A stretch of DNA of 32,255 bases. Source: a virus. Location: positions 1 through 32,255 of IMG/VR virus record IMGVR_UViG_3300045988_162788; one strand, 5' to 3'. The position numbers and the translations under genes are program-made. The notes beneath the pieces are model-generated. The model searched no databases and was not told the origin of the DNA. It saw nothing but the letters and a program-made list of their open reading frames with translations. The stretch's first letter is position 1. Every line of letters begins with the position of its first letter. Below, piece by piece: positions 87 through 30,027 of this stretch.

Positions 87-106
87 ACTACTTTGGGCAC
101 AAAAAA

Positions 107-150
107 TAAGCCCCTTCAGCACCTGATTTCTCAGGTACTGAAGGGGCTTA
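107..150 (-). terminator. Rho-independent terminator closing the minus-strand transcription unit
   Basis: A perfect 13-bp stem (taagccccttcag / ctgaaggggctta) encloses an inner 6-bp stem (acctga / tcaggt). On the minus strand it is followed by TTTTTT (plus-strand aaaaaa at 101..106). It lies 10 nt after the stop of CDS 160..630. Confidence 0.8.
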
Positions 151-159
151 TCAGCTAGT

Positions 160-2073: not shown

Positions 2074-2096
2074 AGTGCCTCCTTTCTTAAATAGAC

Positions 2097-2125
2097 GCGC
2101 CCCTCAGCCGATGAGCCAAGGGGCG
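2097..2125. terminator. Hairpin H1 of a three-hairpin cluster upstream of the endolysin gene
   Basis: The stem gcgcccct / aggggcg is flanked by atattttt on the plus strand, and by an A/T-rich tract on the minus strand. Confidence 0.45.
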
Positions 2126-2145
2126 ATATTTTTGGGTAAAGAAAA

Positions 2146-2168
2146 AGACCTCCAGACTCAGGGGGTCT
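2146..2168 (-). terminator. Hairpin H2, terminator-like
   Basis: Minus-strand RNA reads AGACCCCC-UGAGUCU-GGAGGUCU followed by UUUUCUUU. On the plus strand the mismatch becomes a G-U pair and cagttttc follows. Confidence 0.55.
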
Positions 2169-2220
2169 CAGTTTTCTTGCGGTGGGTTTTAAGCTCACGC
2201 TCCACCTCAGCTAGGCAGAA

Positions 2221-2260
2221 AGGTGCGGGTGTCTCTAGCAGATTTAGAGACCCCGCACCT
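2221..2260 (-). terminator. Hairpin H3, terminator-like, immediately after the double stop of CDS 2267..2710
   Basis: A 15-16-bp stem (aggtgcgggtgtctct / agagaccccgcacct) has a 9-nt loop. It is followed by UUUCU on the minus strand and by a T-rich tract on the plus strand. Confidence 0.6.
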
Positions 2261-2266
2261 TCCTTA

Positions 2267-5421: not shown

Positions 5422-5907
5422 CTAGTTCTTCTCCTTCTCCACAATTCGGGCAAGACCATTGCCCAGGTCTTCTGCTACCCATTCCTTCTCCACACTAGGA
5501 GTAGCGGGACCCGGTGCCGCCGGGACCTTCACACCAGGTGCACCGGTCATCTCTGCCAGATTCACGACCTGTCCCGGCTGAACATCCAGCGTGAGCAAAT
5601 CCAGAATCACTTGACGTCCGCTCTCGCCAATCGCCGAGACCTTCACGCTGTAGCGGGCAGGACCCAGCAACTGGACCCCCCTCTCGCCACCGCGCGGATG
5701 TGAGCGCAGCTCACCGTTCACCAAAAACCCCCTGACAGCGCAGGGGGTGAAAATCGTGGTTTCATCATGAGCCACACAGGACGGAGTGAACAGTACAACA
5801 CCAGAGGTCACTAGCGCAGGCAAACCGGATAACGCCTGGTGTGTCGCAAAGTTTGCGTGTACGGTGGCGTACCTTGCAGAAGGTTCTGCCACAGGGATAT
5901 CGGGCAT
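5422..5907 (-). CDS. Minor tail protein (hypothetical)
   Basis: 161 aa, tightly packed between the Tal-like gene and the fibre gene. No motif recognised. Confidence 0.6.
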   Translation of the reverse strand: MPDIPVAEPSARYATVHANFATHQALSGLPALVTSGVVLFTPSCVAHDETTIFTPCAVRGFLVNGELRSHPRGGERGVQLLGPARYSVKVSAIGESGRQVILDLLTLDVQPGQVVNLAEMTGAPGVKVPAAPGPATPSVEKEWVAEDLGNGLARIVEKEKN

Positions 5908-11723: not shown

Positions 11724-12421
11724 TTACCCTCCTAGAATCGCCTTGATGCCGGAAAAATCAATGCCGCCAGGACCCACCCTGACGGCATGTGACGTTTTCT
11801 TTTTCTTCGGCTGCGGGACCTCAACCTGCTCCGACTTGCTCAGCTTGCTGCCCTTCGCAATCGCGCGGGTGATGTTCACCAGCCCAGCTGACAGGAACTC
11901 CTGGGTACCCCAGCCCACCAGGTCAGGGTTGACCAGGAGCTCCGCCCGCCACAGACTCGTCGGGTCGTGCTTCAGCTTCTCAACGGCCGCCATCGCTACT
12001 CGCAGTGCGCGCGCTGAGTTAATCGCCTCCACGTCGACACCCAGGAGCTGTAGCTCCAGGTCAAGCGCCGGGTACTTTACTGCTGATTCGAGGAGGGCTG
12101 AGATTTTCCCGACGCCTGCATATACGCACCGACGAGCGTCACGAGAACATCGAGCTGCTTGTCGCGTGCCCAATCCTCCCACGCATCCGAGTCCACTGCG
12201 TAATGCTCGGAGACATAATCGAGCAGGTCGGCAATGCCGTCCATCGCCTCCAGCGAATCCTCACCGTGTTTCTCCGACAGCTGTCGAATCACGTTCAGGC
12301 GGCCAGCGAGACGGGTGCGCTGACCAGTCTTCAGCTCCCACGGAGCGATAAGCAGCTCATGGCCATCCAGCTCAGTGAACTCAGGCAGATCAACTACAGG
12401 CTCTGCAACCTTCTTAGGCAT
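11724..12421 (-). CDS. Tail assembly chaperone, -1 frameshift fusion product (GT-type)
   Basis: After a -1 slip at G GGA AAA, the reading continues as GKISALLESAVKYPALDLELQ. This matches ORF 11724..12182, which ends at TAA immediately before the TMP ATG. Confidence 0.7.
12077..12421 (-). CDS. Tail assembly chaperone (G-type, unshifted product)
   Basis: 114 aa from the ATG at 12421, lying between the MTP and TMP genes. It carries the slippery heptamer near its 3' end. Confidence 0.8.
   Translation of the reverse strand: MPKKVAEPVVDLPEFTELDGHELLIAPWELKTGQRTRLAGRLNVIRQLSEKHGEDSLEAMDGIADLLDYVSEHYAVDSDAWEDWARDKQLDVLVTLVGAYMQASGKSQPSSNQQ
12104..12110 (-). promoter_or_regulatory. -1 programmed ribosomal frameshift slippery heptamer G GGA AAA
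   Basis: On the minus strand TCG GGA AAA TCT is in the zero frame of the G gene. The X XXY YYZ pattern is the same type as lambda G/GT. Confidence 0.75.
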
Positions 12422-15597: not shown

Positions 15598-15625
15598 TCT
15601 TTATTCCTCCAATTAGGTATAGATA

Positions 15626-15652
15626 AAGCCCCTCTTGAGGTAAGAGGGGCTT
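15626..15652 (-). promoter_or_regulatory. Perfect 11-bp-stem hairpin between the scaffold and capsid genes
   Basis: The arms are aagcccctctt and aagaggggctt with loop gaggt. No strong U-tract follows. Confidence 0.5.
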
Positions 15653-15659
15653 GTAGGCT

Positions 15660-17211: not shown

Positions 17212-18474
17212 CTACCCCTCAGCGACGGGGTCACCGAGGGAGACAGCAAGCCGCTGGTCTAGCGCGCGGTCACGCTTCAACTGCTCCGGCGACAGACCCA
17301 TGAACTCACGCACCGTCTCAGATGAGACAACGCCTTGAGCCTGAGCCTGCAACATCAATGCGTTACGGGAGCTCAGCGAGATAACCGCTGGGTCACGCCA
17401 GCGCGCTTCGAGGGTTTCGAGCCCCTCGGTATCCACGCCAGCGACTGCTAGGACGCACCGCGCCAAATCCTCGACCGCATCACCAAAAATCGACTGCTTC
17501 AGCTCCGCCTTCGTGATGAGGCGGTCCTTCGCGCTTCGCATCGCCTCCGCGCTTGCCGGGTTCGACTCCGTGGAGACACCCAGCATGAACGGGGGGATGC
17601 CAGTCTGCGAGGACACTTGCTGTGCGTAGACTTTGAACGTGTTCAGTAGCTGGGTCAGGTCAGCACCCGGCACCGAGCCGGTCTGCGACCCGCTCGGACC
17701 AACCAAGAAACGCCCGAAATAGGCTTCCAAGCGGTTCCGCCGCGGGTTCCCGTCCTCGTCTACAAACATTTCCTCGACGCCATCGCCGAACAAAAACCTG
17801 ACAGGCATGGACAGGAGCTCCTGAGCCACCTGCAGATTCGTCAGCGTTCGCGCCGCCGCATCACACAACTTGTGGATCTCTTCAATCTCACTCCGCCCCT
17901 CTTCACCAAGGCGAATCTGGTTCACAAAGGGAATCACGGGGATACCATCGAAGCCGTGCTCATCAATGCTGGTAAGCACCTCGAATCCGTCGCGGATGGA
18001 GAAGAATCTAGTCACGCCGGGCTCATAAACCGCCTTGTACGTATCCAAACCATCACGGTAAGTCTGCACCGCCTGGACCAGGCGGCCTGTAGCGTCTCTC
18101 CGCAGTTCAAACTCATCACCAGCGTGCACGGAAATGTGCGGGATAGATGGGTTAGAGCCACCGCCAACGACCATGAATGCCGCGCCAGAGACTAGAGCCT
18201 CCGTCAGCGCCAGCGTCAGCTTCGTTCGGAAATTATTCGCCTGCAGGATGCGGTTCAGCTGTTCAGGAGCCTCATCCTGACCGCCATTTCGCGAAATCGA
18301 GAAACCATCAAGAACCAAAGACTCGACCAGCACGTCCACTGCCAACTTCGGCCAGCCCACCTGCATTTCGAGAATGCGGACGTCAGGAGGCAAGGACACG
18401 CCGATAGCGTCCAACCTCGCTTCGCCGTTATAGTAGTTCTCCCATTTGCGGGGGTTCTTTACAACACGGCCCAT
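17212..18474 (-). CDS. Portal protein
   Basis: 420 aa, directly after terL with a 16-nt overlap. Size and sequence character match SPP1 gp6-type portals. Confidence 0.85.
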   Translation of the reverse strand: MGRVVKNPRKWENYYNGEARLDAIGVSLPPDVRILEMQVGWPKLAVDVLVESLVLDGFSISRNGGQDEAPEQLNRILQANNFRTKLTLALTEALVSGAAFMVVGGGSNPSIPHISVHAGDEFELRRDATGRLVQAVQTYRDGLDTYKAVYEPGVTRFFSIRDGFEVLTSIDEHGFDGIPVIPFVNQIRLGEEGRSEIEEIHKLCDAAARTLTNLQVAQELLSMPVRFLFGDGVEEMFVDEDGNPRRNRLEAYFGRFLVGPSGSQTGSVPGADLTQLLNTFKVYAQQVSSQTGIPPFMLGVSTESNPASAEAMRSAKDRLITKAELKQSIFGDAVEDLARCVLAVAGVDTEGLETLEARWRDPAVISLSSRNALMLQAQAQGVVSSETVREFMGLSPEQLKRDRALDQRLAVSLGDPVAEG

Positions 18475-19910
18475 TGACTACCTCCCTTCTTGTCCTTCTC
18501 AGTCAGCCCATGGAGCGCCAAAGTGCACGCCACCAAAGGAGAAATATCTTGGCTTCGATCATCACGCGTCCAGCTCCATAGCTCACTACCACCTTTAGAA
18601 CGTCGGCAAGCCTGCACAGAATCATCCAACTCCTCCTGACCGGTATGTCTCACCTGAGCGCGACCCAGCGCCTCATAAAACGCGCCGCATGCCTGCTGAT
18701 ACGTGCGATGGTCAAGACCTCGCATCATCCGTTTAGTCTTCGGTGACGATGAGATTACGTCCGTGGTCTGTGACCCCGCCGTGTACACCATCGCCATAGG
18801 TTTCCACTTCCGTTTCAGCTCTTCTAGACGCTGCGGAACCCAATCGGTTCCCACGCGCCTGTCGATAACCTCGATATGGATGTTCCCGTCAGCCCGACGA
18901 GAAGCCAAGGAAATCGTCGCCACATCACGCAAGGGCGTCACGTCAACGCCAAAGGCCATCTCCACACCAGCGCGGGACTTCTTGTCGAGACATTGAGCCC
19001 AGAAATCAGCAGGGATAGCCGACGCCGAGCCAACCTTCGACCAAATCCCGAGCCTCTCGCGCTTAAAGTGCTCGTCACTCATCGCCAACCGCTCCGAAGC
19101 GACATAATCGGGACTGATTCGGTACCCCAAAGCCGGGTTAGCCAAAGCCCAATTCCTCGGGTCAGCCGGATCAGCCTCAGATGGCACTGACCACTCATAA
19201 AACGCCAGCTTCTCCTCTTTCTCAGGGCTAAGCGCACGGTCTCGAAGCCCCTTCAAGACCTCAGAATCAGGCATACCCGCAGAACTCGTGTACCAGATCT
19301 GCGGGGACTCATGAAGAGACTTCGAAGCCAGCGTCGGCAACATAGATGCCTGCGCCGACCTCGACAAATCGAACGCCTCGTCAAAAACAACCAAGTCCGC
19401 GGTGAAGCCACGCGCGGAGCCGCTACTACGAGCCGCAAAAAGGATGCGATTACCATTCGCCGCCGTGAAAGACATGCCCGCATTGCCGGTTTTAATGCCA
19501 GGAATCTTCCCGTGGGGGTCACCGTTGTACCCCTGCATGTACTCAACCAATTCACTATTGCGAATCAAAGACTCAAGTCTCTGATGATGTTCGGCAGCAG
19601 TCTTGAAATGGTGCGCCGAATGCAGCGTGACTTTCTCACCAAACAAAAACATTGCCGCCAGCTCACGAGCTTCAAGGATGGAACCCTTGCCATTCTGTCG
19701 AGGAACGATAAGCCCAACTTCAAAGGCCTGCCAGCGCCCATCTGGACGCTCAGCCAGCGAACCACGGAGCACATATTCCTGCCAGGGGTCAAGGATAAGA
19801 CCTGCCATCTTTGCCACAGCAACCGCTTCATCACCTGCAGAGCTGACGTGGAGTGGTGTCACGTCTATGCGAGGAGTCTGAGACCCCATCAGCTGAGTCG
19901 TCTCAGCCAC
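18459..19910 (-). CDS. Terminase large subunit
   Basis: 483 aa with a P-loop-like VPRQNGKGS, a Walker B-like LVVFDEAF, and a C-terminal nuclease-type region. Confidence 0.9.
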   Translation of the reverse strand: MAETTQLMGSQTPRIDVTPLHVSSAGDEAVAVAKMAGLILDPWQEYVLRGSLAERPDGRWQAFEVGLIVPRQNGKGSILEARELAAMFLFGEKVTLHSAHHFKTAAEHHQRLESLIRNSELVEYMQGYNGDPHGKIPGIKTGNAGMSFTAANGNRILFAARSSGSARGFTADLVVFDEAFDLSRSAQASMLPTLASKSLHESPQIWYTSSAGMPDSEVLKGLRDRALSPEKEEKLAFYEWSVPSEADPADPRNWALANPALGYRISPDYVASERLAMSDEHFKRERLGIWSKVGSASAIPADFWAQCLDKKSRAGVEMAFGVDVTPLRDVATISLASRRADGNIHIEVIDRRVGTDWVPQRLEELKRKWKPMAMVYTAGSQTTDVISSSPKTKRMMRGLDHRTYQQACGAFYEALGRAQVRHTGQEELDDSVQACRRSKGGSELWSWTRDDRSQDISPLVACTLALHGLTEKDKKGGSQWAVL

Positions 19911-19924
19911 AGAGCCTCACCTCC

Positions 19925-20425
19925 TTATCCGGCGGCTTGCGCCTCCTCGATACGACGCCGGCGAAGAGCCGCCAACTCGTCAAGCGCGCTCATCTTCGGT
20001 TTCACAGCCTCACTCAGCTTCGCGATATCAGCCGCAGCCTCACGCTCAGCATTCAGCAGAGCCGCCACATCACGAGGCCCAGCAACAATCAGAGCCGCGC
20101 GAGCCTTGTAGAGGCGCCACCGCGCGGACTCCAACGGGTCCTCATGCGTCGGCACAGCCACATCACGGGTCGCGCCGTAGGCGACCATCTGCTCAACGAC
20201 CACGGAGCCAGCTTGTCCAACGGCTCGGACAACAGGCGCAGAATCAGGAGCACCATTCACGGGTTCCGGCGGCCGCTCCGCAGCCTTACGATCACGCGCC
20301 GCCTTCGACGCGGCACGCTCCGCAGCCTTACATTCCGGGCAAGGAGGCTCACCCCGGCGACGGTGACGCTTCGCCGCCGCCGTAGTCCCACACGGGGCAA
20401 GCTTGCGGCTCTTTTTCTCAGCCAT
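19925..20425 (-). CDS. Terminase small subunit
   Basis: 166 aa, immediately upstream of terL. It has the N-terminal CGT...RH..RGE..C..C DNA-binding motif common in actinophage small terminases. Confidence 0.7.
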   Translation of the reverse strand: MAEKKSRKLAPCGTTAAAKRHRRRGEPPCPECKAAERAASKAARDRKAAERPPEPVNGAPDSAPVVRAVGQAGSVVVEQMVAYGATRDVAVPTHEDPLESARWRLYKARAALIVAGPRDVAALLNAEREAAADIAKLSEAVKPKMSALDELAALRRRRIEEAQAAG

Positions 20426-20601
20426 AAATCCCCCTCTCTCATGGGAATTTTTGGGTTATGAGCCCCGTGGGGGGATGTCACTATGACCGAAGGGGGAAAC
20501 TTGACCCCATAGGGGGTAACCCCCCGGGGTACGTTTCCCAATCCGTCATCATCTGAAAACCAAATCCGTTTCGTAGTCATTGAACAAAAAGCTGTTTGGA
20601 T
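20426..20601. other. Candidate cos / packaging-recognition region
   Basis: This is the 176-bp non-coding gap between HNH and terS. It contains three self-complementary C-run/G-run elements: ccccgtgggggg (20463..20474), ccccataggggg (20505..20516) and ccccccgggg (20520..20529). Confidence 0.4.
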
Positions 20602-20892
20602 TCACCATGCTTGCGTGGTCTTTGGCGCTCGTACTTGGTGTGCGAGTCGTTTGCGTCCGCGTCGGCTGTTGCATCGTCGGTGTGCTGGTGCGAGGTCGCC
20701 GAGCAGATTGCCGCCGTTGGCGAGTGCGTCGAGGTGGTCGGCGGTGAAGGCCAGCGGGTGAGTGTAGGGCAGGCTCATATCGATTGGTTTGCCGCAGAGG
20801 TGGCAGGGCCAGCCGTTGTCGTTGGTTGCTTTGCGGAGTGCTGCGGCTTTGGCGCGGTAGGTGCGGTCACTGTATTTTGTCGCAGTCGTCAC
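20602..20892 (-). CDS. HNH endonuclease (packaging-associated)
   Basis: 96 aa with a GTG start. It shows CHLCGKPI...TADHLDALANGG...APAHRRCN, a His-Me finger pattern, and is adjacent to terS. Confidence 0.85.
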   Translation of the reverse strand: MTTATKYSDRTYRAKAAALRKATNDNGWPCHLCGKPIDMSLPYTHPLAFTADHLDALANGGNLLGDLAPAHRRCNSRRGRKRLAHQVRAPKTTQAW

Positions 20893-21076
20893 AGTCGCAC
20901 CTGCTTCCGATGATGGCGCGTAGTCGAGCCTTGCTGATGGTGAGGGAGAAGTAGCTCTCGTTTTCGAAGATTGCTTGTCCCCAGCTGATGTCGACGTCCC
21001 ATTCTGTGGGGAATCGCTTTTGGAGTGTCTTGAAGATTTGTTCTTCTTCTTCGTCGGTGAAGCTTCTGCGGCACAT
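20867..21076 (-). CDS. Hypothetical small protein (paralogue of 21087..21251)
   Basis: 69 aa, with SD GGGAGGA before the ATG. It has an N-terminal TDEE.E motif at residues 7-12 and a C-terminal CDCDDCD. Confidence 0.6.
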   Translation of the reverse strand: MCRRSFTDEEEEQIFKTLQKRFPTEWDVDISWGQAIFENESYFSLTISKARLRAIIGSRCDCDDCDKIQ

Positions 21077-21086
21077 GGTGTCCTCC

Positions 21087-21251
21087 CTAGATAACGGGGG
21101 GTGTAGATGAGGTTACTGTCACGACAATAACGACTTGTTTGTCGTCAAAAATCTGTTGCTCAAAGATTATTTCGCTGGCACCTGGGTAACAATCTGAAAT
21201 CAGTGCCAGCACCTTCTCACGTTCTTCGTCCGTGAGGCGTCGTGTGTGCAT
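21087..21251 (-). CDS. Hypothetical small protein
   Basis: 54 aa from the ATG at 21251, with SD GAGGAA 5-6 nt upstream. This is the internal start of ORF 21087..21275. It shares the TDEE.E motif with the next gene. Confidence 0.6.
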   Translation of the reverse strand: MHTRRLTDEEREKVLALISDCYPGASEIIFEQQIFDDKQVVIVVTVTSSTPPVI

Positions 21252-21261
21252 TGCGTTTCCT

Positions 21262-21429
21262 CTAGGTCGTGGCAAGGCATAGCGTTACAAGGGCTGTTGC
21301 GAAACTCATCACTCCTGCAAGGATTGTGGTGAAGAATCGTGACGCCGTTATTTTGAACGTCAGTGCGGAAGCAGTAACTGTCAGGTTTGTGCCGATTGTG
21401 GCGGCAAAGAAGGCGATTAGTATCTGCAT
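21262..21429 (-). CDS. Small hydrophobic protein (55 aa), first gene of the late operon; absent from the ORF track
   Basis: The sequence reads AAAGAGGTGAAAATG, then MQILIAFFAATIGTNLTVTASALTFKITASRFFTTILAGVMSFATALVTLCLATT, then TAG. The stop is embedded in the SD of the next gene. Confidence 0.55.
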   Translation of the reverse strand: MQILIAFFAATIGTNLTVTASALTFKITASRFFTTILAGVMSFATALVTLCLATT

Positions 21430-21449
21430 TTTCACCTCTTTGGGAACAA

Positions 21450-21484
21450 AAAGCCCCCGACACCTGACGGTTACCGGGGGCTTT
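21450..21484 (-). terminator. Rho-independent terminator between the early operon / candidate late promoter and the late genes
   Basis: Minus-strand RNA reads AAAGCCCCCG, then a 15-nt loop, then CGGGGGCUUU followed by UUGUU. The SD of the first late gene begins about 5 nt after the U-rich tract. Confidence 0.75.
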
Positions 21485-21500
21485 GGGCACAGCTGTGCCC
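21485..21500. promoter_or_regulatory. Perfect 16-bp palindrome GGGCACAGCTGTGCCC in the predicted late leader
   Basis: The palindrome is perfect. It lies between the candidate -10 element and the terminator stem, so it could be a protein-binding site or a 6-bp RNA stem with an AGCU loop. Confidence 0.5.
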
Positions 21501-21508
21501 GATAACTT

Positions 21509-22111
21509 TTATTTTACGAAAATTTCCGCAGCTTGCAAGTGGGCGAGCCGCTTGATTGCTTCATACCCTGTCTCAGTCCAGCCGCAGGCTCCGCAGCACG
21601 TCATGACTCGGGTCGAGGGCTGTTCCTCTGGGCGGACGATGATAGCGAGCGCGTCGTCTACTTTTGTGGTGCCGTCGGTGAGTTGGCGGGTGTTGGTTGC
21701 TTTCTTGCATCGGGGGCAGGGGGTGTTGTGGAGGTGGACGGTGGTGTGGTTGAGGGTTCGGATGCGTCGTGTCCATTCTGTGGCGTAGATGGTTGCGACG
21801 GTTCGGTTTTCGTTGGTTGCCCATTCTCGGACGGCTTGTTTGAGCGTGGGGTTGGGGGTGGTGGTGTGTGGGGTGGTGCGGTTGCGGATGTCGTGTTCAA
21901 GTTCGATTGCGTCGAGGTTGCAGATTGCGCCGGTGTTTTTGTTTTTGCCGCTGCGGCCTGTTCCGTTTCTGTCGGTGACTGCGATGCGGAGTTGGTCGAG
22001 GAGTGGCATTTCTTGGATGACGGTGGGGGTGCCGTCGTCGAGTTTGCGGATGCGTGGGGTGCCGTCGCAGAGGGCGGTGATCATGCTTTCGAGTGTTGGG
22101 TTGGGGTGCAT
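21509..22111 (-). CDS. Cys4 (zinc-ribbon-like) protein, last early gene; candidate late-gene regulator
   Basis: 200 aa with SD GGAG. It has CPRC (132-135) and CCGAC (172-176). I recognise no homology; the regulatory role is inferred from position only. Confidence 0.6.
   Translation of the reverse strand: MHPNPTLESMITALCDGTPRIRKLDDGTPTVIQEMPLLDQLRIAVTDRNGTGRSGKNKNTGAICNLDAIELEHDIRNRTTPHTTTPNPTLKQAVREWATNENRTVATIYATEWTRRIRTLNHTTVHLHNTPCPRCKKATNTRQLTDGTTKVDDALAIIVRPEEQPSTRVMTCCGACGWTETGYEAIKRLAHLQAAEIFVK
21511..21538 (-). promoter_or_regulatory. Candidate late promoter (TTGCAA - 16 nt - TAAAAT)
   Basis: On the minus strand the -35 TTGCAA is at 21538..21533 and the -10 TAAAAT at 21516..21511. 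Both lie within the last codons of CDS 21509..22111. Confidence 0.55.
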
Positions 22112-22181
22112 GGGTTGCTCCTGTGCGTTTGTTGGGTGGCGCGGCGGCTGGTGTGGCCGCCGTGCCGTGGTGTGTGGTGTG

Positions 22182-22412
22182 TTAGTTGATGGGTTTGTAG
22201 GTGTAGTTGGGGAGGGTGGGGTGTTTGGTGGTTAGCTCATTGGATTTGTAGTGGAGGGTGTAGTGTTCCCAGTTGGTGGGGAGGAGGGAGCGGAAGAGGC
22301 GTTCGATTTCGTTGCGGCGGTCTCCTGGGGTGTTGGGGTCGTAGTCGATGGTGGCGCACATGATGGGGTGGTCGGGTGCGGTGTTGGTGTAGATGGCGAG
22401 GCGTTCTAGCAT
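22182..22412 (-). CDS. Hypothetical protein
   Basis: 76 aa from the ATG at 22412, with an ATGCTAG overlap to the Bro-N gene stop. This is the last part of the otherwise spurious 266-aa ORF 22182..22982. Confidence 0.55.
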   Translation of the reverse strand: MLERLAIYTNTAPDHPIMCATIDYDPNTPGDRRNEIERLFRSLLPTNWEHYTLHYKSNELTTKHPTLPNYTYKPIN

Positions 22413-23083
22413 TGTTCGGTTCCTTCCTTGGTGAGGTTTTCGGTTTTCCATTCGAGGTATCGCGCGAGGCGTTCGAGGTCGAGCGCGTGTTTGACGGTGT
22501 TTTCGTCTGCTGCGGGGTTTGCGAGGATTCCTTCGCAGAGGGTGTGTACGTGTGAGGTGACGTAGCGGGCTTGGTCTGCGAGGTTGGTGTTGATGTCCTT
22601 TCGGGTGGGAGTGTTGTGGGGTTGGGGGGTGAGGAGGTCGTCGATGCCGGGGACGGTGTTTGCAGAATCGGCGAGCGCGGGCGCTGCGGCGAGCGCATGA
22701 CCGCCTGCTGTGCCTGCGGTGCGGGGCTGGTAGGTGGTGGGGACGGGGCCGGCGAGGAGTTCGTGTTCGTGTTGCTTGATCCAGGCGGCGGTGTTGAGGC
22801 GTTCGGTTTTGTTGTGCTTGAGGCGTGCGTACTTGATGCGGCGGGCGAGCGCGTTGGTGGGGGCGTAGAGGAGTTTGTTTTTGCCGTTGGAGGCGTATTC
22901 GATTCGGTTGTTGTCGGGGATTTGGGATTGGAGGGAGTTGCCCTTGTAGCCGGCGGCGCGGGCGATGTCGAGGATGCACCACCAGACGCGGGTGGGGTTG
23001 TGGAGTGCGTCGTGCTGGACGGCGAAGCGGATGGTGTAGCCGTTGTGGGTGGTGGTGCCGGGGAGGTAGGTGTTGGTGTTCAT
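22406..23083 (-). CDS. Bro-N domain protein (antirepressor-like)
   Basis: 225 aa from the ATG at 23083, with SD AAGGAG. The N-terminal GYTIRFAVQHD...RVWWCILDIARAAGYKGNS resembles the Bro-N / KilA-N-type DNA-binding domain. Confidence 0.7.
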   Translation of the reverse strand: MNTNTYLPGTTTHNGYTIRFAVQHDALHNPTRVWWCILDIARAAGYKGNSLQSQIPDNNRIEYASNGKNKLLYAPTNALARRIKYARLKHNKTERLNTAAWIKQHEHELLAGPVPTTYQPRTAGTAGGHALAAAPALADSANTVPGIDDLLTPQPHNTPTRKDINTNLADQARYVTSHVHTLCEGILANPAADENTVKHALDLERLARYLEWKTENLTKEGTEQC

Positions 23084-23094
23084 GGTGTTTCTCC

Positions 23095-23532
23095 TTAGTG
23101 GGTGGTGGGCTCGATGATGATGCGCACGCCAGGGTTGGGGTGGAGCTTGTCGGTGTAGTTCTTGGTGGCGATGAGGTGGGTGCATCGTGCGTCGTCGTCG
23201 ATGATGTCGGCGGCGGTGAGGGAGTCGAGGACGGCTCGGGTTAGTTTGTCGACGTCGGGTTTGACGGCGTGGATACCTTTGCCGTTGGGGTCTCGGTATC
23301 GGGGACGTTGGGGCGGGGAGAACCTGAAATCGAGGTAGATGGTGAAGGGGCCGGGGACGCGGCGGCCTGCTGCTTGGGCGGCGAGCGCGGTTTGCAGGGT
23401 GTTGCGCCAGGGTTTGAGTCTTTTGTTGGCTTCGATGAGGCGAGCGCGGGTGCCGTGTCTGATTGCTGTTTTGGAGCCTTGGGGAATCGGTGTTCCTACG
23501 ATGAAGAAGGTAAGCGGCTCTGGTTTGGTCAT
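23095..23532 (-). CDS. rusA: RusA-family Holliday junction resolvase
   Basis: 145 aa. It shows FFIVGTPIPQGSK, a KPW motif, and KPDVDKLTRAVLDSLT...IDDDARC, typical of RusA. Confidence 0.9.
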   Translation of the reverse strand: MTKPEPLTFFIVGTPIPQGSKTAIRHGTRARLIEANKRLKPWRNTLQTALAAQAAGRRVPGPFTIYLDFRFSPPQRPRYRDPNGKGIHAVKPDVDKLTRAVLDSLTAADIIDDDARCTHLIATKNYTDKLHPNPGVRIIIEPTTH

Positions 23533-23542
23533 TGGGTTGTCC

Positions 23543-23896
23543 TTAGTGGAAGAAGCTGCTGACGAAGGTGGCGAGGATGATGATGAGGAAGAACGCGGCG
23601 GTGAGCCAGATCTGGGTGTTGCGTAGCTTGTCGCTGAGGTCGGCGATGCGTTGGTCTTGCCAGTTGGCTCGGCGGTTGGCTTCCTTGAGAGTTTCGGTAT
23701 GTGTCTTGAGTTCTTCGGTGTGTTCCTTGAGGCGGGCGGCGGTTGCTTCGGTTGAGGTGTCGTAGGCGGTTTCGAGGGTGGTGAGTCGTGCTGACAGGGT
23801 GGGGCTGTTTTTGACTTCGGTGACGGCCTGGGTGAGGGCTTCTCCTGCGAGGCGCTTGATGTCGTTGTAGCTGGTGGGCTGGCTGTTGGTGGTCAT
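23543..23896 (-). CDS. Tail-anchored coiled-coil membrane protein
   Basis: 117 aa: a helical N-terminal part plus a C-terminal TM (NTQIWLTAAFFLIIILATFVSSFF). Confidence 0.65.
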   Translation of the reverse strand: MTTNSQPTSYNDIKRLAGEALTQAVTEVKNSPTLSARLTTLETAYDTSTEATAARLKEHTEELKTHTETLKEANRRANWQDQRIADLSDKLRNTQIWLTAAFFLIIILATFVSSFFH

Positions 23897-23920
23897 TGTG
23901 ACTCCTAAAGTGTTGGGTGT

Positions 23921-24463
23921 TTAGAACGGGGGCTGGTCGGTGGTGTACGGGGTGGGGTATGCCGGTGCTTGCTGGTATCCCTGCGGCGAGCGCGGTGCCG
24001 GCGTCTGTGCAGCCGGTGCCTGCGGTGCGGGGTGCTGCTGGTATCCGTTGGTGGGCTGTGCTTGGTATCCGTGGGGCGGGTACTGGGTGGGTACTGCGGG
24101 GCGCGGTGCCGGGCGGCCGGTGGATCCGATGGGTTTGGGGTTGGTGGGTACGATGCCGACGACGGATGCGATGAAGCGGAGCTGGTTGCCTTCGGTGCCG
24201 TCGGTGCGGGTGTAGGTTCGCATTTCTTCGATTCCTCGGATGATGACTCGTGCTCCCTTGGTGAGGTTTTCGGCGATGGTTTCGGCGTTCTTGTAGGCGG
24301 CGACGCGGCGCCAGGTGGTGTTGATGGTCTCGTAGGTGCCGTTGTCGAGTTTGCGGACGCGGTTGTCTGCGACGGAGAAGTTGCAGACGGTGCCGCCGCC
24401 GGGCAGGTTGTGCAGTTCGATGGTTTCGCCGACGTTGCCGACGATGGTCAGTTCGTTAGACAT
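23921..24463 (-). CDS. ssb: Single-stranded DNA-binding protein
   Basis: 180 aa. It has an OB-fold N-terminus (LTIVGNVG...WRRVAAYKNAETIAENLTKGARV), a Gly/Pro/Gln-rich linker and an acidic tip, DQPPF. Confidence 0.9.
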   Translation of the reverse strand: MSNELTIVGNVGETIELHNLPGGGTVCNFSVADNRVRKLDNGTYETINTTWRRVAAYKNAETIAENLTKGARVIIRGIEEMRTYTRTDGTEGNQLRFIASVVGIVPTNPKPIGSTGRPAPRPAVPTQYPPHGYQAQPTNGYQQHPAPQAPAAQTPAPRSPQGYQQAPAYPTPYTTDQPPF

Positions 24464-24956
24464 GGGTGAGGTCCTTTCCGATGGTGTTTGCGATTGCGTG
24501 GACGTTTGCGGCGTTAGCGTTGGTGAGTGCCTTCAGCTGTGGGCGGGGGTATGGGGGTAGGGGCTGGGCGGTTCCTCGGTGGTGTGGGTCGAGGGATTCC
24601 AAAATTCGGTTGTAGCGGTTGATGAGGGCGGTAATGTTGACCCAGTCAGTCTCGCTGTAGACGTCTTCCTTTTCTTCGTTGATGAGTGCCATGAGGCGGG
24701 TGAGGGTGCGCTTCTTGTGGGCGAGCGCGGCATCCTTTTCCTTGAGGCGTTCCCAGGCTTTGGCGATGTCGGGGATTTGCGGTGCCCCGTAGAGGCGGGT
24801 GGCGTAGAGCTCTTTGATGAGGTCGGTGCTGCGTTCTGCGGGGATTTCTCCGACGAAGATGCCTGCGGCGGCTTCCTGCATGGGGTCGAGGGACTCAATG
24901 CGGGTATCCGTGGCGATGAGCAGTAGCCAGAATTGTCGGAATTCGTCGAGTGTCAT
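24456..24956 (-). CDS. Hypothetical protein (replication-module position)
   Basis: 166 aa, between the initiator and SSB, with an 8-nt overlap to ssb. No motif recognised. Confidence 0.65.
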   Translation of the reverse strand: MTLDEFRQFWLLLIATDTRIESLDPMQEAAAGIFVGEIPAERSTDLIKELYATRLYGAPQIPDIAKAWERLKEKDAALAHKKRTLTRLMALINEEKEDVYSETDWVNITALINRYNRILESLDPHHRGTAQPLPPYPRPQLKALTNANAANVHAIANTIGKDLTHV

Positions 24957-24965
24957 GGGGTGCTC

Positions 24966-25880
24966 CTAGGTGAGGGCGTAGTAGTTGGTGGGTGGTAGTT
25001 GTTGATGAGGGGGGTAGGGTGTGTTGGGGTTGAGGGCGTTGACTGTGCCTGCTGCTCGGCGGGCGAAGCTGCCGGCGGCAGGTTTGACCTGGTATGAGTC
25101 GGGTTCGTCGAGCCAGTCGTCTTGGTTGAGCCAGGTAGCGGCGTGCTTGATGTGTTCCTCTGCGCGGCCGAGCTTGATGACGTATTCGCGGTAGCCGGCG
25201 GCGGCGGTGTTGAGTTGCTCTTCCGTGCCGCCGCGTTTCTTCGCTTTTTCCCAGGCTTTGAATGCGGCGGCTTTTCCTCGGTTGGAGGGGTAGATCTTCC
25301 AGAACTCTTCGAAGTTTGGCGGGTATTCGCCGAGCGGCCGCTTTTTGGGCTTTGCAGGCTTGGGGGCGGGCTCTGTCTCGGTCAGCTCGAAGAGCTGATC
25401 ATGAGTGTTATCTTCCCTTGGTTCTCTTCCTTGGTTCTCTTCTATTGTTAGTGTGCGGATTTCCGCATAGGGGGTATGCGGATTTTCACATAGGGGGTGT
25501 GCGGATTTCCGCATAGGGGGTGTGCGGATTCCTGCATAGGGGTGTGCGGATTCCGGCATAGGGGGTGCAGGCTCCGTCATGGGGAGCGAAGTCGGCGGCG
25601 GGACAGGCTCAGACAAGTGGAGAAGGTACCGATTTGAACCCTGCCCTCCACCCTCGAGCTCCCGGTTAATCCGCGTGATTATTCCCTTCTCTTCGAGGAT
25701 TCCTAGCACCTCCCATACGCTCCGGTAATAAATCCCCGTCATCTCACCGATACGTCGCGCCGACGGAAAGCACATACCCGTAGTCGCGTTCATGCAATCA
25801 GCGAGTGCCATCAGCACCACCTTTTCACGCGGGGTGAGTCCGGTGACTTTCCACGCGGCTATGAGGTGCCCGTAGCTCAT
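24966..25880 (-). CDS. Replication initiator (lambda O-like organisation: N-terminal wHTH, iteron-encoded linker, C-terminal domain)
   Basis: 304 aa. It has an N-terminal winged-helix-like LTPREKVVLMALADC...ARRIGEMTGIYYRSVWEVLGILEEKGII. Five iterons lie inside the coding sequence. It also has the C-terminal FEEFWKIYP...KAWEKA motif seen in phage replication proteins. Confidence 0.7.
   Translation of the reverse strand: MSYGHLIAAWKVTGLTPREKVVLMALADCMNATTGMCFPSARRIGEMTGIYYRSVWEVLGILEEKGIITRINRELEGGGQGSNRYLLHLSEPVPPPTSLPMTEPAPPMPESAHPYAGIRTPPMRKSAHPLCENPHTPYAEIRTLTIEENQGREPREDNTHDQLFELTETEPAPKPAKPKKRPLGEYPPNFEEFWKIYPSNRGKAAAFKAWEKAKKRGGTEEQLNTAAAGYREYVIKLGRAEEHIKHAATWLNQDDWLDEPDSYQVKPAAGSFARRAAGTVNALNPNTPYPPHQQLPPTNYYALT
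25416..25441. repeat. 13-bp tandem duplication ccttggttctctt x2 in the lower-GC flank of the iterons
   Basis: The exact direct repeat lies at 25416..25428 and 25429..25441, adjacent to the T-rich stretch tctattgtta. It is a candidate unwinding element. Confidence 0.55.
25451..25564. repeat. Five tandem 22-23-bp iterons (putative origin of replication)
   Basis: The units begin at 25451, 25474, 25497, 25520 and 25542, with consensus gtgTGCGGAttTCCGCAtagggg. Each contains an internal inverted repeat. Confidence 0.8.
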
Positions 25881-26182
25881 GTCAGCACTCCGATTCGTTC
25901 GATGTTAAGTTCGCACCGCCATTCCGATGCGGAGGGGACGATTTTGAGGAAGGTGACCAGCCCTGCGTTGCGCAGCTCTTTGCAGAGTTTGTTGGCGGTG
26001 GGCTGGGAGATGCCCAGGTGTTGGGCGAGGCTGGCGGGGGAAAGGTCGCTGTGCCCGTTGGTGTCTGAATGGAGGGTGATCCAGTAGAGGGCGCGGCGGT
26101 GGGTTTCGCTCATGCGGCAGTTCGTGGCTTGGTCGAGCCAGGTGGCTTCTGCAAGGGGGCCGAGGATATCTGCGTCAAGCAT
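25877..26182 (-). CDS. Winged-helix (MarR-like) DNA-binding protein
   Basis: 101 aa from the ATG at 26182, with GGAG 7 nt upstream. It contains LSPASLAQHLGISQPTANKLCKELRNAGLV and has an ATGA overlap with the initiator gene. Confidence 0.65.
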   Translation of the reverse strand: MLDADILGPLAEATWLDQATNCRMSETHRRALYWITLHSDTNGHSDLSPASLAQHLGISQPTANKLCKELRNAGLVTFLKIVPSASEWRCELNIERIGVLT

Positions 26183-26390
26183 GTTCAAGCTCCATTCGGC
26201 AGGAGGGGCAGGGCGCGCATACGCCGGGTAGTTTCGCCGGTGTGCGCTGCGGGGTGCGGTCGTAGGTGATGAAGTATCCGGACAGGTCAATGTCGACGGT
26301 CTTGCCGCAGAGAGCGGCGGCGCGGTGTTTGCCGTAGGCGGCGGCCTGGACAAGGGCGGCATGCTCGACGGTGTGCATGACGTGCCGCAT
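26175..26390 (-). CDS. Hypothetical small Cys-rich protein
   Basis: 71 aa with a C-terminal CAPCPSC. It overlaps the next start by 8 nt. Confidence 0.5.
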   Translation of the reverse strand: MRHVMHTVEHAALVQAAAYGKHRAAALCGKTVDIDLSGYFITYDRTPQRTPAKLPGVCAPCPSCRMELEHA

Positions 26391-26407
26391 GGTGACTCCT
26401 AGGGTGG

Positions 26408-26926
26408 TTAGTGTTTCTTGGTGAGGCGAGCGCGGCGGGCGCTCAGCCAGGCTTGGAGGTTGTGGAGGTTCTCGATGTCTCGGGGGCTGTCGAGGGTGTC
26501 CTCGGGGACTGGGTCGCTGGTGGGTGCGGGGCGGTAGATGAGCTCTGCAGGTGCCTTGGTGGAGCCTTGCATTTCCTGTGCCTCGGCGTCTCGGCGTTCT
26601 CTCTTACGTTTCCGTCGGTTGCAGATTTTGCACCCGTCGGTGTACGCGTTGATGTCGCCGCCGCATCCGCTGCAGATTTTCCGCGGGCCGGGGATGCCTC
26701 TCGGGTCTCCCATCCTGAGCCAGTAGTCGTGACGGTGGGCGCAGCTGCGGCACCGCTGGTTCCTCGTCAGCCATGGCTCGCCGCACATCCGGCAGGTTTC
26801 CGGATCCGGTGGACGCAACGCCCGCTTATCGCCGGCACGCCGCCATGCATTGTGGCGGTTGGAGCAAATCCTGCATCCACGAGTCCGCTCTTCGACAGGT
26901 GCCCCGCAGCTAGTACAGGTACTCAT
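26408..26926 (-). CDS. Protein with three tandem zinc-ribbon repeats and a basic segment
   Basis: 172 aa with SD AAGGAAAGGA. The repeats are CTSCG-x8-CRIC-x2-RH, CRMCG-x8-CRSC-x2-RH and CSGCG-x8-CKIC-x2-RK. Confidence 0.7.
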   Translation of the reverse strand: MSTCTSCGAPVEERTRGCRICSNRHNAWRRAGDKRALRPPDPETCRMCGEPWLTRNQRCRSCAHRHDYWLRMGDPRGIPGPRKICSGCGGDINAYTDGCKICNRRKRKRERRDAEAQEMQGSTKAPAELIYRPAPTSDPVPEDTLDSPRDIENLHNLQAWLSARRARLTKKH

Positions 26927-27119
26927 CGCGATTCCTTTCCTTCATGTCGTTCACCCAAGAACCCAGCAGAATGGCGGGCGCTGCGGGGATCAACGAGGCG
27001 ACGAGCAGTACGCCGCGGATCCCGATATCTTCCTGAGCGCTCGCGATACCGGCGATGGTGACGGTTGCGATGACAAGCGCCCAGATGAGGAGTTTGGTGT
27101 TTCTGATGGTGCGTTCCAT
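26910..27119 (-). CDS. Small membrane protein (2 TM)
   Basis: 69 aa with SD AAGGAA. Its hydrophobic segments are LLIWALVIATVTIAGIASA and GVLLVASLIPAAPAILLGSWV. Confidence 0.6.
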   Translation of the reverse strand: MERTIRNTKLLIWALVIATVTIAGIASAQEDIGIRGVLLVASLIPAAPAILLGSWVNDMKERNRDEYLY

Positions 27120-27129
27120 TGGTGTTTCC

Positions 27130-27639
27130 TTACGGGACGATGAGGAGAGCGAAGATGGTGAGTGCTGCGGAAAGCCAGATGATGGTGTTGACCCATGCGA
27201 GCTGGATGAGTCGCTTGTTGGTTTCGTTGAGCTCGTCGCGTAGGAGGTCGGTTTTCTGCTGGAGGGCGTCAGCGCGACCGTTCACCTTGTTTACGTAGGC
27301 GGTGAGCTGGGCGATTGCCTCCATGTGTTCCTTGCTGGTGTGTTGGAGGAAGGCGACGGCGCACTCAACTTCGGCCTGCTTGCGTTCATTCCTGGCGACG
27401 CGTTGCATGGCGTGGGCGACATTCTGTCGGGTGTAGTCGTTCTGTTCTTCGAGGCGGTCGTGCCAGACGATAAGCCTGGTGTTGAGGTAACAGGTTGTGT
27501 TATGCAGCTCGGCGGCGGCGATGTCGATTCTGGCGATGTCGTCGATGATGCCTTCGTGGTTGTCGATGATTGTCTGGATGGCGGTCTGGCGGTGCCGGCG
27601 GCCTGCTGCGCGGTCGCGCTTGGTCTTGGTGGCTGTCAT
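27130..27639 (-). CDS. Tail-anchored coiled-coil membrane protein (paralogous anchor to 23543..23896)
   Basis: 169 aa: a helical body plus a C-terminal TM (NTIIWLSAALTIFALLIV). Confidence 0.7.
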   Translation of the reverse strand: MTATKTKRDRAAGRRHRQTAIQTIIDNHEGIIDDIARIDIAAAELHNTTCYLNTRLIVWHDRLEEQNDYTRQNVAHAMQRVARNERKQAEVECAVAFLQHTSKEHMEAIAQLTAYVNKVNGRADALQQKTDLLRDELNETNKRLIQLAWVNTIIWLSAALTIFALLIVP

Positions 27640-27654
27640 GGCGTGTTGTCCTTC

Positions 27655-27683
27655 CTGACTGGTGTGGGGTGGGCGGTTAGGAT
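27655..27683 (+). promoter_or_regulatory. Candidate promoter of the nested plus-strand gene (CTGACT - 17 nt - TAGGAT)
   Basis: The -10 TAGGAT ends 7 nt before the ATG at 27691, a geometry typical of leaderless actinobacterial mRNAs. Alternatively, the GGA within it could act as a weak SD. Confidence 0.45.
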
Positions 27684-27690
27684 TGTTGGT

Positions 27691-28212
27691 ATGGATTTCT
27701 CAACTCTTTTTTCTGGCGGTTCAGCGATTGCGGCTATCGTCTCTGTCTTTTTCGCGATTGTTTCCTGGTACCAGTCCCTTGGCTCGAAGAAAGCGAAGGC
27801 TAAGGCTGAGGAGGCTCACAAGGCGGCGTTAGAGATGCGTGATGCCGCGGTTCGTGCTGCTGAGGCTGCGGAGGAGCATGCCCGGCAGATGGAGCAAATC
27901 GTTGCTGAACAGCAGAAGCAGTCCGAGTCTCAGGGCAAGATTGAGTCTCACCTGTGGAGGCCCACATTTGAGCTGACTCCGGATAGAGGTGGCACCTACC
28001 TGCTGCGCAACGTCACTGGTGAATCTGTTGAGGTTCTTGAGGTGGCGAATCTCGATGAGTTCGTCCGCTGTGACCAGGTTCAGCAGGTGTTCCGCCCTGG
28101 AGAGTCGCTACGCATCTTCATGTTTGGTGCTTCCGGTAAGCCGTTGCCGTCGAACCTAGAGCTACGAATCCGTGGGGTCGATGAGGTCGTCCCCGTCCCG
28201 ATTCGCCGATAG
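27691..28212 (+). CDS. Membrane-anchored protein encoded antisense to the early operon (moron; candidate superinfection-exclusion/defence protein)
   Basis: 173 aa from the ATG at 27691. It has an N-terminal TM (GGSAIAAIVSVFFAIVSWY), an Ala/Glu helix and a beta-rich C-terminal ~85 aa. It is the only plus-strand gene between 160 and 29968. Confidence 0.7.
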   Translation: MDFSTLFSGGSAIAAIVSVFFAIVSWYQSLGSKKAKAKAEEAHKAALEMRDAAVRAAEAAEEHARQMEQIVAEQQKQSESQGKIESHLWRPTFELTPDRGGTYLLRNVTGESVEVLEVANLDEFVRCDQVQQVFRPGESLRIFMFGASGKPLPSNLELRIRGVDEVVPVPIRR

Positions 28213-28353
28213 CTCACGTTCCTTTTCTTCCTTCTTCTCTTCCCAGGAATCTTTGAGCGTCCTGAAGCAGAAGAATCCGGAGACGATAGCGCCGGCAACG
28301 CTGATGAAGAAGCAGACAGCATTGAATACGAGGTTGAACTGGTCGGGTTCCAT
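28162..28353 (-). CDS. Small membrane protein
   Basis: 63 aa with TM NLVFNAVCFFISVAGAIVSGFFCF and a charged tail. Its 3' end overlaps the convergent gene 27691..28212 by 51 nt. Confidence 0.5.
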   Translation of the reverse strand: MEPDQFNLVFNAVCFFISVAGAIVSGFFCFRTLKDSWEEKKEEKERELSANRDGDDLIDPTDS

Positions 28354-28375
28354 TAATGTTTTCCTTCCTGGGTGG

Positions 28376-28921: not shown

Positions 28922-28952
28922 GGTTAGTGCTCCTTATTCGTTGGTGGTGTGG

Positions 28953-29204: not shown

Positions 29205-29215
29205 CGCTGGGTTCC

Positions 29216-29440: not shown

Positions 29441-29450
29441 TGGTGTTTCC

Positions 29451-29968: not shown

Positions 29969-29997
29969 GGCCACCCTCCTTTCCTGGTGTTGTAATT

Positions 29998-30027
29998 AGT
30001 TTATGTCTCTGGTTTGGGACAAGTCAA
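29998..30027 (-). promoter_or_regulatory. Candidate early (cro-side) promoter TTGACT - 18 nt - TAAACT
   Basis: On the minus strand the -35 TTGACT is at 30027..30022 and the -10 TAAACT at 30003..29998. This leaves a 29-nt leader containing the SD. Confidence 0.5.

Follow-up and report, generated by a model that had tools for sequence, protein, structure and literature searches.

A conserved promoter, motif and hairpin module before the late genes of actinobacterial phages, with a possible role in Q-like antitermination

The DNA described here, referred to as the window, is the whole stretch of 32,255 nucleotides (nt) of IMG/VR virus record IMGVR_UViG_3300045988_162788, which is a phage of Rothia mucilaginosa with the layout of a temperate siphophage, including integrase, repressor and tail genes. 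Directly behind the last gene of its early (replication/recombination) block, which codes for a 200-aa protein of the DUF7341/DUF7340 type, the phage has a promoter-like sequence, a short motif and a terminator-like hairpin in close succession, and these are directly followed by the first gene of a long block of packaging, virion and lysis genes transcribed in the same direction. The architecture is real and represents a conserved module that is found across many actinobacterial phages and is linked to late transcription. The mechanism that best fits the module appears to be processive antitermination similar to that of the lambdoid Q proteins, performed by a protein unrelated to Q, a reading which is plausible but is favoured here only tentatively.

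Architecture of the module in the window

The elements of the module are on the minus strand and their coordinates are given in Table 1. A preliminary description of this DNA had reported a promoter, palindrome, stem, Shine-Dalgarno (SD) sequence and ATG in this region, and on re-reading the sequence all five were found where they had been placed, while translation of the upstream gene likewise gave the 200-aa product with the CPRC...CCGAC residues. The promoter-like pair TTGCAA-16-TAAAAT is also listed by an independent promoter scan of the window, which by itself is not significant (six sites, 4.8 expected), and its position predicts a transcription start near 21503-21505. The conserved motif TGTGCCCAAAGC extends from within the palindrome, whose 3′ half it overlaps, into the base of the terminator stem, which is formed by AAAGCCCCCG (21484..21475) pairing with CGGGGGCTTT (21459..21450) and is followed by TTGTT. 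The run after the stem reads TTTTTGTT, the first three T of which close the stem. From its sequence this is a predicted intrinsic terminator, having a G+C-rich stem of about -23 kcal/mol and then UUUUUGUU; with its T-tract it ranks among the top three terminator-like sites on the minus strand of the whole window, and the 121-nt region has a folding z of -3.2. The TTGTT is followed by CCC, the SD sequence AAAGAGGTG (21441..21433) and the ATG at 21429.

Strict promoter-like sites are few on the minus strand, with only four over 32 kb, one of these lying before the cro-like gene and one at the module. Terminator-like sites inside the late block were identified at 2125..2098, 5748..5727 and 11788..11761. 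A second exact copy of the motif 11-mer TGTGCCCAAAG is present at 101..91, directly after the T-tract of the terminator at 151..106, the chance expectation for this 11-mer in the window being approximately 0.015 copies. In phage Morgana and in locus L013, TTTT(C)GTGCCC is found right after or within a hairpin, as it is at 101..91.

Other roles for these elements were considered. With up to three mismatches allowed, no second copy of the palindrome occurs in the window, and a function as operator of the phage repressor was rejected, there being neither a second copy nor a cluster of half-sites near the immunity region. The motif was also rejected as the upstream activator site of a promoter located further down, given that only the hairpin and the SD sequence lie between it and the ATG. 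The open reading frame (ORF) 21329..21505 on the plus strand, a gene-finder call running through the hairpins, is probably spurious. Against Rfam 15 no part of the window reached gathering score, the module region returning only sub-threshold leader and terminator look-alikes (E ≥ 0.17).

Gene and site in close relatives

Eight viral contigs (93-97% protein identity) have invariant hexamers, palindrome and stem. The codons between and beside the hexamers vary (AAEIFVK vs AGESLVK), and one position of the stem has changed from G-U to G-C. Beyond the stem, four of these close relatives (L006-L009) have unrelated DNA, in which the three small genes that follow the module in the window are absent and the HNH gene directly follows the hairpin. 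A mosaic breakpoint is thus located right after the stem, and gene and site therefore behave as one mosaic unit.

The module in distant relatives

The module is present behind homologues of the protein encoded by phages of Mycobacterium (cluster F), Gordonia and Arthrobacter and by oral phages, the distant homologues being 17-35% identical to the window protein. The surrounding gene order consists of SSB, a RusA or RuvC-like resolvase, small genes, the homologue, a gap of 40-500 nt, further small genes, HNH and cos/terminase. Within this order the protein holds the position of the lambdoid "Q slot", behind SSB, RusA and several small genes. In DNA that is otherwise unrelated the elements retain the same order, namely promoter, 16-21 nt, TGT motif, hairpin/terminator, SD sequence and next gene, with the promoter upstream of the terminator in every locus where both are visible. 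The -10 (TAnnnT or TGnTAnnnT) sits at or just after the stop codon, and its extended form TGnTAnnnT is found in L013, L016, L020, Phistory, Faith5x5 and Birdsong. The -35 TTGCAA is at the same place in the window, L014, L018, Kukla and Nitzel, and TTGACC also occurs. A good and conserved -35 such as TTGCAA fits a promoter which needs no activator, as is the case for lambda PR′.

The motif, which is of a TGT-pyrimidine-A-rich type, is identical over 12 nt (TGTGCCCAAAGC) in the window, Llama, Phistory and Faith5x5, with variants in Nitzel and Birdsong (TGTCYCTGAAAC), L016 and L020 (TGTGTCWAAATC) and Che9d and Kukla (TGTCTTCA). Of 16 loci, 15 have the motif or a variant; its orientation is constant and it follows the -10 hexamer at 16-21 nt, a spacing whose regularity is partly a product of choice, as some of the -10 anchors were picked by eye. 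The structural context of the motif differs by phage (stem, loop or unpaired) and no conserved RNA fold was found around it across the relatives; this result and that of the Rfam search give no support to the RNA-based alternative, similar to the put element, that had been suggested earlier. A hairpin with a T-tract is present in 11 of the 16 loci.

The association with the end of the homologue gene is well above background. In 88 kb of 13 loci there are nine strict promoter matches, and five of these fall within -80..+60 of the homologue stop, where 0.19 would be expected. A terminator-like site is located at most 330 nt after the stop in 14 of 19 loci (background 0.36 sites per 330 nt). When k-mers were counted without bias, the most widely shared words were GTGCCC, TGCCCAA and TGTGCCC; TGCCCAA is present in 6 of the 13 loci, where its background is 0.023 per region.

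Two features were observed in the DNA downstream of the module. In Gordonia phage Phistory a non-coding leader of about 100 nt, beginning CTTCCCGCTACCGGGATGGTGCGGAGCGTGACCGCGCCGGCTCACAACGCCAGTGAC, is situated just downstream of the module (L025 3303-3420) and is 80-97% identical in approximately 25 Gordonia phages (Birdsong, GAL1, BritBrat, Lton and ODay among them), mostly in unannotated DNA. The phages that share it have little else in common over the 959-nt query of homologue gene and module, and the leader may be a structured RNA. In Kukla, the unannotated gap of 511 nt after gp83 contains a signature resembling a tRNA T-arm, GGTTCGATTCC (L023 ~3376-3423).

The DUF7341/DUF7340 protein

The 200-aa protein has a match to Pfam PF24030 (DUF7341; 35.3 bits vs a curated cut-off of 27, E = 1.8e-8, residues 7-107). 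Among the aligned relatives DUF7341 was matched in all 10 and DUF7340, which covers the zinc-ribbon part, in nine, and the Llama, Phistory and Birdsong homologues match both domains (E = 1e-24 to 1e-44). The cysteines C132, C135, C173 and C176 are invariant in an alignment of 11 homologues; in one of 21 sequences three of them are invariant and C173 is at least 90% conserved. This C-terminal Cys4 arrangement is, by its CxxC...CxxC pattern, a predicted zinc ribbon, and the AlphaFold2 model (pLDDT 78) has a beta-rich ribbon.

A word-indexed protein search gave close relatives only, and an exhaustive HMMER search added eight more distant representatives. With Phistory gp100 as tBLASTn query, homologues were found in 212 annotated phage records, including those of Mycobacterium cluster F (Llama gp101, Che9d gp104) and Gordonia (Phistory gp100), and Arthrobacter phage Kukla gp83 was found with a different family member as query. 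Nearly all are annotated as "hypothetical protein", and a literature search found no paper mentioning DUF7341 or the motif in the context of phages. For the 200-aa protein, nothing useful was obtained from PHROGs at E ≤ 0.01 or from NCBIfam, and no enzyme or packaging domain was detected with Pfam or NCBIfam. The RinA, ArpU and LtrC families gave no PHROG match at E ≤ 0.01 and no Pfam match at E ≤ 1; for Ogr/Delta there was no Pfam match at E ≤ 1, only weak generic zinc-ribbon matches of single members (E ≥ 0.003). A BFVD fold search returned only members of the family itself, one of these with the unverified label "ribbon-helix-helix". Without a match to them in sequence or to any solved structure in fold, the protein stands outside the Q, RinA/ArpU/LtrC and Ogr/Delta families. 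In one variant, P0003, the upstream 76-aa gene continues in frame into residues ~84-200 of the DUF7341 protein, so that most of the N-terminal domain is missing; either a deletion mutant or an artefact of assembly could account for it.

Kita and the other protein families of the slot

The link to late transcription comes from Gordonia phage Kita, for which RNA-seq has shown that late transcription starts at the position of the module and runs on through cos (PMC6426606; data public as GSE121959). The Kita module (KU963257) occupies L036 2627-2740, at the start of gene 76. The product of the gene upstream, Kita gp75 (224 aa), ends in a PCPNSDC...CDACG zinc ribbon, has no match in Pfam and aligns to the DUF7341 profile over the ribbon only (E = 6e-4, probability 29%). 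A member of its family is encoded at the same position in 251 phage records, further mycobacteriophages of cluster F among them, and Ramsey has the same kind of module behind a protein of this family. A third group preceding the module is formed by BritBrat gp96, Lton gp68 and ODay gp113, Cys-rich proteins of ~242 aa with a C-terminal helix-turn-helix (HTH); the idea that these are remote DUF7341 homologues was set aside after a comparison by hhalign at E = 0.06. GAL1 gp75 also precedes a module and is without a Cys-rich or zinc-ribbon motif. The slot before the same kind of module is therefore occupied by at least three protein families, the proteins sharing it being all of 190-275 aa and mostly possessing a Cys-rich or zinc-ribbon segment. 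Such interchangeable families form a parallel to the Q proteins of lambda, 21 and 82, which are non-homologous.

Llama gp102 (L024 5640-5744) and the 5′ part of Kita gene 76 (L036 2627-2737) are probably not genes or are mis-started. In Kita gene 76, an ATG with a GGAGG SD sequence follows the hairpin and the HTH domain begins from residue 51 of the annotated product.

Proposed mechanism

In the favoured reading, a promoter of the type used by the host primary sigma factor, embedded in the end of the DUF7341/DUF7340 gene, would give rise to transcripts from about 21504. These would carry TGTGCCCAAAGC, partly within a small hairpin, and some 55 nt on would meet the intrinsic terminator just ahead of the ribosome-binding site of the first gene in the packaging/virion/lysis block. 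In the lysogen and early in infection, transcripts of the early operon and those from the module promoter would both halt there. Upon its accumulation the upstream gene product would act on RNA polymerase at the promoter-proximal element, and the polymerase so modified would read through the module terminator and the later terminator-like sites; those noted inside the late block would be ignored by a processively modified enzyme. The start site, the termination, the read-through and the role and target of the protein are what we infer from the arrangement of the elements. Antitermination is considered the best fit because the promoter precedes the terminator and looks self-sufficient, following the logic of lambda PR′-tR′. 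Lambda PR′ needs no activator, and a factor encoded just upstream lets polymerase pass tR′. The resemblance to the PR′-qut-tR′ geometry that had been claimed for the window holds for the order of promoter, terminator and late operon with a Cys4 gene upstream, which is conserved; no clear sigma-dependent pause element is evident in the window.

A bolder extension is possible, though rather doubtful. It holds that the DUF7341/DUF7340, Kita gp75 and BritBrat gp96 families are unrecognised promoter-proximal processive antiterminators of actinobacterial RNA polymerase with a fold unrelated to known ones, loaded at a TGTGCC-type element ~10-25 nt into the late transcript, and that they may constitute a general late switch of a large share of the siphophages of Mycobacterium, Gordonia, Arthrobacter and Rothia.

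Points against antitermination and alternative explanations

A number of observations weigh against antitermination. Between the -10 and the hairpin of the window there is no TAnnnT that might serve as a pause element of the lambdoid type; in the relatives the motif begins TAGTGT, AAGTGT or CAGTGT, keeping A2 and T6 of a -10 hexamer, and the window reads CAGCTGT. Conservation of palindrome and terminator, proposed earlier as a check, was borne out for the palindrome and the stem in the close relatives and failed for the T-tract, which is replaced by TTTGCTGTCC in L006-L009, so that a strong T-tract is not always kept. The hairpins of L013, L014, L022, Phistory and Faith5x5 are also strong but without a canonical T-tract, and what is conserved about the hairpin may thus be a role other than termination. 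The TGT motif is common to loci with different upstream protein families, and its variants do not track the protein clades, Llama and Che9d having proteins that are 62% identical and yet different variants; co-variation of the two was accordingly rejected, and the motif may be read by polymerase or by a host factor. The homologue in L021 overlaps the large terminase gene with no intergenic module, and variant P0003 (177 aa, from a 32,969-nt ENA contig) is without the first ~80 residues. When Foldseek was run against PDB, E was 0.06 at best (TM ≤ 0.16) and no Q structure was among the matches listed, matches from a profile search of PDB did not fall below E = 0.28, and the Q families are absent among the Pfam matches at E ≤ 1, in agreement with the earlier view that the protein would be an analogue and not a homologue of Q. 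The earlier statement that no space is left for a further promoter proved wrong, as the late region has non-coding gaps at 20426..20601 (176 nt), 15598..15659 (62 nt) and 2074..2266 (193 nt, before the lysin gene) which provide such room, and other promoters are possible in all three. Lastly, the start seen by RNA-seq in Kita fits promoter activation equally well.

This last point is shared by an explanation in which the DUF7341 protein binds DNA and activates the late promoter, functionally like RinA/ArpU/LtrC of Gram-positive phages or Ogr/Delta of P2/P4, while the hairpin serves mainly the early operon, as its terminator and 3′ stabiliser, and does no more than attenuate the late transcripts. 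Besides the late transcripts of Kita "starting" at the module, it draws on the gene being directly upstream of the packaging genes, which is a typical site of late activators (PMC3753634, PMC3152322), on the zinc ribbon with a conserved DNA motif nearby and on the T-tract being dispensable in some relatives. It is nonetheless unlikely: with the promoter upstream of the terminator wherever both are visible, activated transcripts must still pass the terminator, the conserved TTGCAA is a good -35 of the kind usually missing from activator-dependent promoters, a conserved motif downstream of the -10 is in an odd place for an activator site, and neither Pfam nor PHROGs gave a match to RinA, ArpU, LtrC or Ogr. 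On a similar footing, and likewise improbable rather than negligible, is control of the module by a host factor, by polymerase itself or by a small downstream HTH or ribbon-helix-helix (RHH) protein, the DUF7341 protein having an unrelated job in DNA metabolism or packaging. That the same motif and module lie behind at least three protein families, that motif variants are independent of protein clades and that the L021 homologue abuts the large terminase gene would all be accounted for in this way, as would the neighbouring genes for SSB, RusA and nucleases and the MerR-like or RHH regulator whose gene comes first behind the module in Kita, Ramsey and Nitzel. It is opposed by the linkage of gene and site, which is kept across mosaic breakpoints and four host genera, by the similar size and mostly Cys-rich or zinc-ribbon nature of the slot proteins and by the failure to detect an enzyme or packaging domain.

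Much less probable is the proposal that promoter and terminator produce a stand-alone RNA of ~55 nt with TGTGCCCAAAGC as its core, the late genes being transcribed by leak-through or from other promoters. A promoter with an immediate terminator does define a small transcript, the motif is conserved in sequence and constant in orientation, and its second copy at 101..91 is beside another terminator; but Rfam has no match, the structural context of the motif varies between phages, the transcript would range from ~50 to 130 nt in length and the late transcripts of Kita continue from the module through cos (PMC6426606). Least probable of all would be an ordinary end-of-operon terminator with a chance promoter-like match in coding sequence and no dedicated switch. 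The number of promoter-like sites in the window, no higher than in shuffled sequence, is compatible with this, but many phages have these three elements in position although their DNA is unrelated, far above background, and the module coincides with the late start of Kita.

Comparison with known systems

The lambdoid Q modules (Q gene-PR′-qut-tR′-late operon) resemble the window in having a gene for a ~200-aa protein as the last after a recombination/resolvase (nin-like) region, a consensus-like promoter directly behind it, a terminator a few tens of nt on and a long co-directional late block, and also in that the slot is filled by several families without clear mutual homology. Q-lambda, moreover, binds zinc. 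The window differs in that its protein has no similarity to Q in sequence or fold, no -10-like pause element is evident, the hosts are Actinobacteria and the lysis genes are at the far and not the near end of the operon. A further difference concerns the site, as each lambdoid Q type has its own, whereas TGTGCCCAAAGC at ~+13..+24 is common to phages with different upstream proteins.

The P2 Ogr and P4 Delta proteins are likewise Cys4 zinc-binding phage proteins tied to late transcription. Their length is ~70-170 aa and their site is upstream in promoters that depend on an activator, whereas the motif of the window is downstream of the -10. The put RNA of HK022 is a cis-acting antiterminator RNA upstream of terminators, and like the window it has two stem-loops directly downstream of a promoter. 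In the window, by contrast, the second stem-loop is the terminator itself, no conserved fold or Rfam match was found and a conserved protein gene is always adjacent to the module. With RinA/ArpU/LtrC there is in common a gene immediately upstream of the small terminase/packaging region and a presumed role as late-operon switch (PMC3753634, PMC3152322). Those proteins activate a promoter upstream of terS, whereas the promoter in the window looks self-sufficient and is followed by a terminator.

Late transcription in mycobacteriophages sometimes starts upstream of the right cos end (PMC9262239). The published accounts of this late start in actinophages (PMC9262239, PMC6426606) place it where the module of the window lies, a few genes ahead of HNH and cos, from where transcription passes through cos into the virion genes, and the Kita start maps onto the module; they describe no promoter sequence, motif, terminator or regulator at the late start. 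The lambdoid phages already provide this kind of system, in which a regulator gene adjoins a promoter-proximal terminator; what is new here are the protein families, the TGT motif and the host group.

Genome of the window phage

Bases 1-52 of the window repeat bases 32204-32255, and such identical ends mark it as a circular assembly and a complete genome of ~32.2 kb. The sequence comes from a human oral metagenome, and Rothia mucilaginosa carries a prophage with 92% identity at the 200-aa gene. No DNA similarity was found between 20800-22800 of the window and 50,697 phage records, and a tRNA search of the window found none. Integrase, an ImmA-like gene and the repressor are encoded on the plus strand. 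The order on the minus strand is cro-like gene, replication genes, SSB, RusA, two unknown genes, the 200-aa gene and the hairpins, then three small genes, HNH, a 176-nt gap, a candidate small terminase (TerS), the large terminase (TerL) and portal, and at the end of the late block tail, lysin and holin genes. The terminase genes, which together span 18459..20425, are the start of the morphogenesis genes.

Table 1. Features of the module and its surroundings in the window and of the corresponding module of Gordonia phage Kita
Feature	Position	Strand	Remarks
Window
-35-like hexamer TTGCAA	21538..21533	minus	in last codons of ORF 21509..22111; invariant in 9 close relatives
-10-like hexamer TAAAAT	21516..21511	minus	16-nt spacer from TTGCAA; overlaps stop TAA 21511..21509
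Perfect 16-nt palindrome GGGCACAGCTGTGCCC	21500..21485	minus	10 nt beyond -10; could form 6-bp hairpin with 4-nt loop
Conserved motif TGTGCCCAAAGC	21491..21480	minus	~+13..+24 of the predicted transcript
Terminator-like hairpin	21484..21445	minus	10-bp stem with 7 G-C pairs, 15-nt loop
DUF7341/DUF7340 protein gene, 200 aa	21509..22111	minus	translation has CPRC...CCGAC
First gene after the hairpin, 55-aa hydrophobic protein	21262..21441 including SD	minus	ATG 21429
HNH endonuclease gene	20602..20892	minus	Pfam HNH and PHROG 338, E = 1e-18; between module and terminase genes
Non-coding gap, 176 nt	20426..20601	minus	between HNH and TerS genes; G/C-run repeats
Candidate small terminase gene	19925..20425	minus	assigned from position alone
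Large terminase gene	18459..19910	minus	PHROG 9, E = 1e-76
Early promoter-like site TTGACT-18-TAAACT	29998..30027	minus	directly upstream of cro-like gene
Last late-block gene after holin, 156 aa	160-630	minus	transposase-type HTH look; own SD
Strongest terminator of the window	151..106	minus	end of late block
Kita, L036
Promoter-like ATGACA	2627-2632		18-nt spacer to TGT-CACACT
TGT-CACACT	2648-2656		
Motif TGTGTCCACAAC	2674-2685		17 nt beyond -10
Hairpin	2686-2713		then TTTCGTCATT, GGAGG, ATG 2738

The 55-aa protein encoded directly after the hairpin is conserved, having 38% identity over 37 aa (E = 2e-5) to its counterpart in L015, and the products of the next two small genes (21087-21275 and 20867-21076, minus strand) look paralogous (RRLTDEEREKVLALISDCYP vs RSFTDEEEEQIFKTLQKRFP). 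The gap between the HNH and TerS genes, which has C- and G-run inverted repeats (CCCCGGGGGGTTACCCCCTATGGGG, CCCCCTTCGG, CCCCCCACGGGGC), is a candidate cos or terminase-binding region by analogy, because the HNH gene abuts cos at the right end in Llama, Birdsong and Kita; for the same reason this gap is a likelier cos than the hairpins of the module, which were rejected in this role.

The GC and AT skews flip sharply at the module (window 21000-30000 vs 1-21000). The coding (minus) strand of the early region is C- and A-rich and poor in G and T, the plus-strand GC skew reaching +0.46 and the AT skew -0.48 at 22-23 kb, and the late region is mildly opposite; by eye a similar skew is seen in the distant relative D_HF5_3. 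At the other end of the late block, the product of gene 160-630 had no relatives in the viral contig collection and the gene is probably a moron. A direct repeat GAGTAAATAGTGACCT is located at 71-86 and 32039-32054 (minus strand), flanking the junction region beside the integrase gene; its copies could be arm-type sites of the integrase, and attP is presumably situated between the late terminator and the integrase gene.

Significance

Few late promoters have been characterised in mycobacteriophages and their regulation is considered to need study (PMC9262239). The late-gene switch of actinobacteriophages is therefore an acknowledged gap, for which the module and its candidate regulator families, all of them annotated as hypothetical or generic DNA-binding proteins, provide a testable object. 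Both are present in tractable phages, namely those of M. smegmatis (Llama, Che9d, Ramsey) and G. terrae (Kita, Phistory). Genome annotation is also affected, in that a number of short ORFs predicted over the module probably do not represent genes or have a misplaced start. Very active late promoters would be useful as expression tools, and, if antitermination were true, this would be the first Q-type system in Actinobacteria, with a new protein fold that acts on an RNA polymerase which is a drug target.

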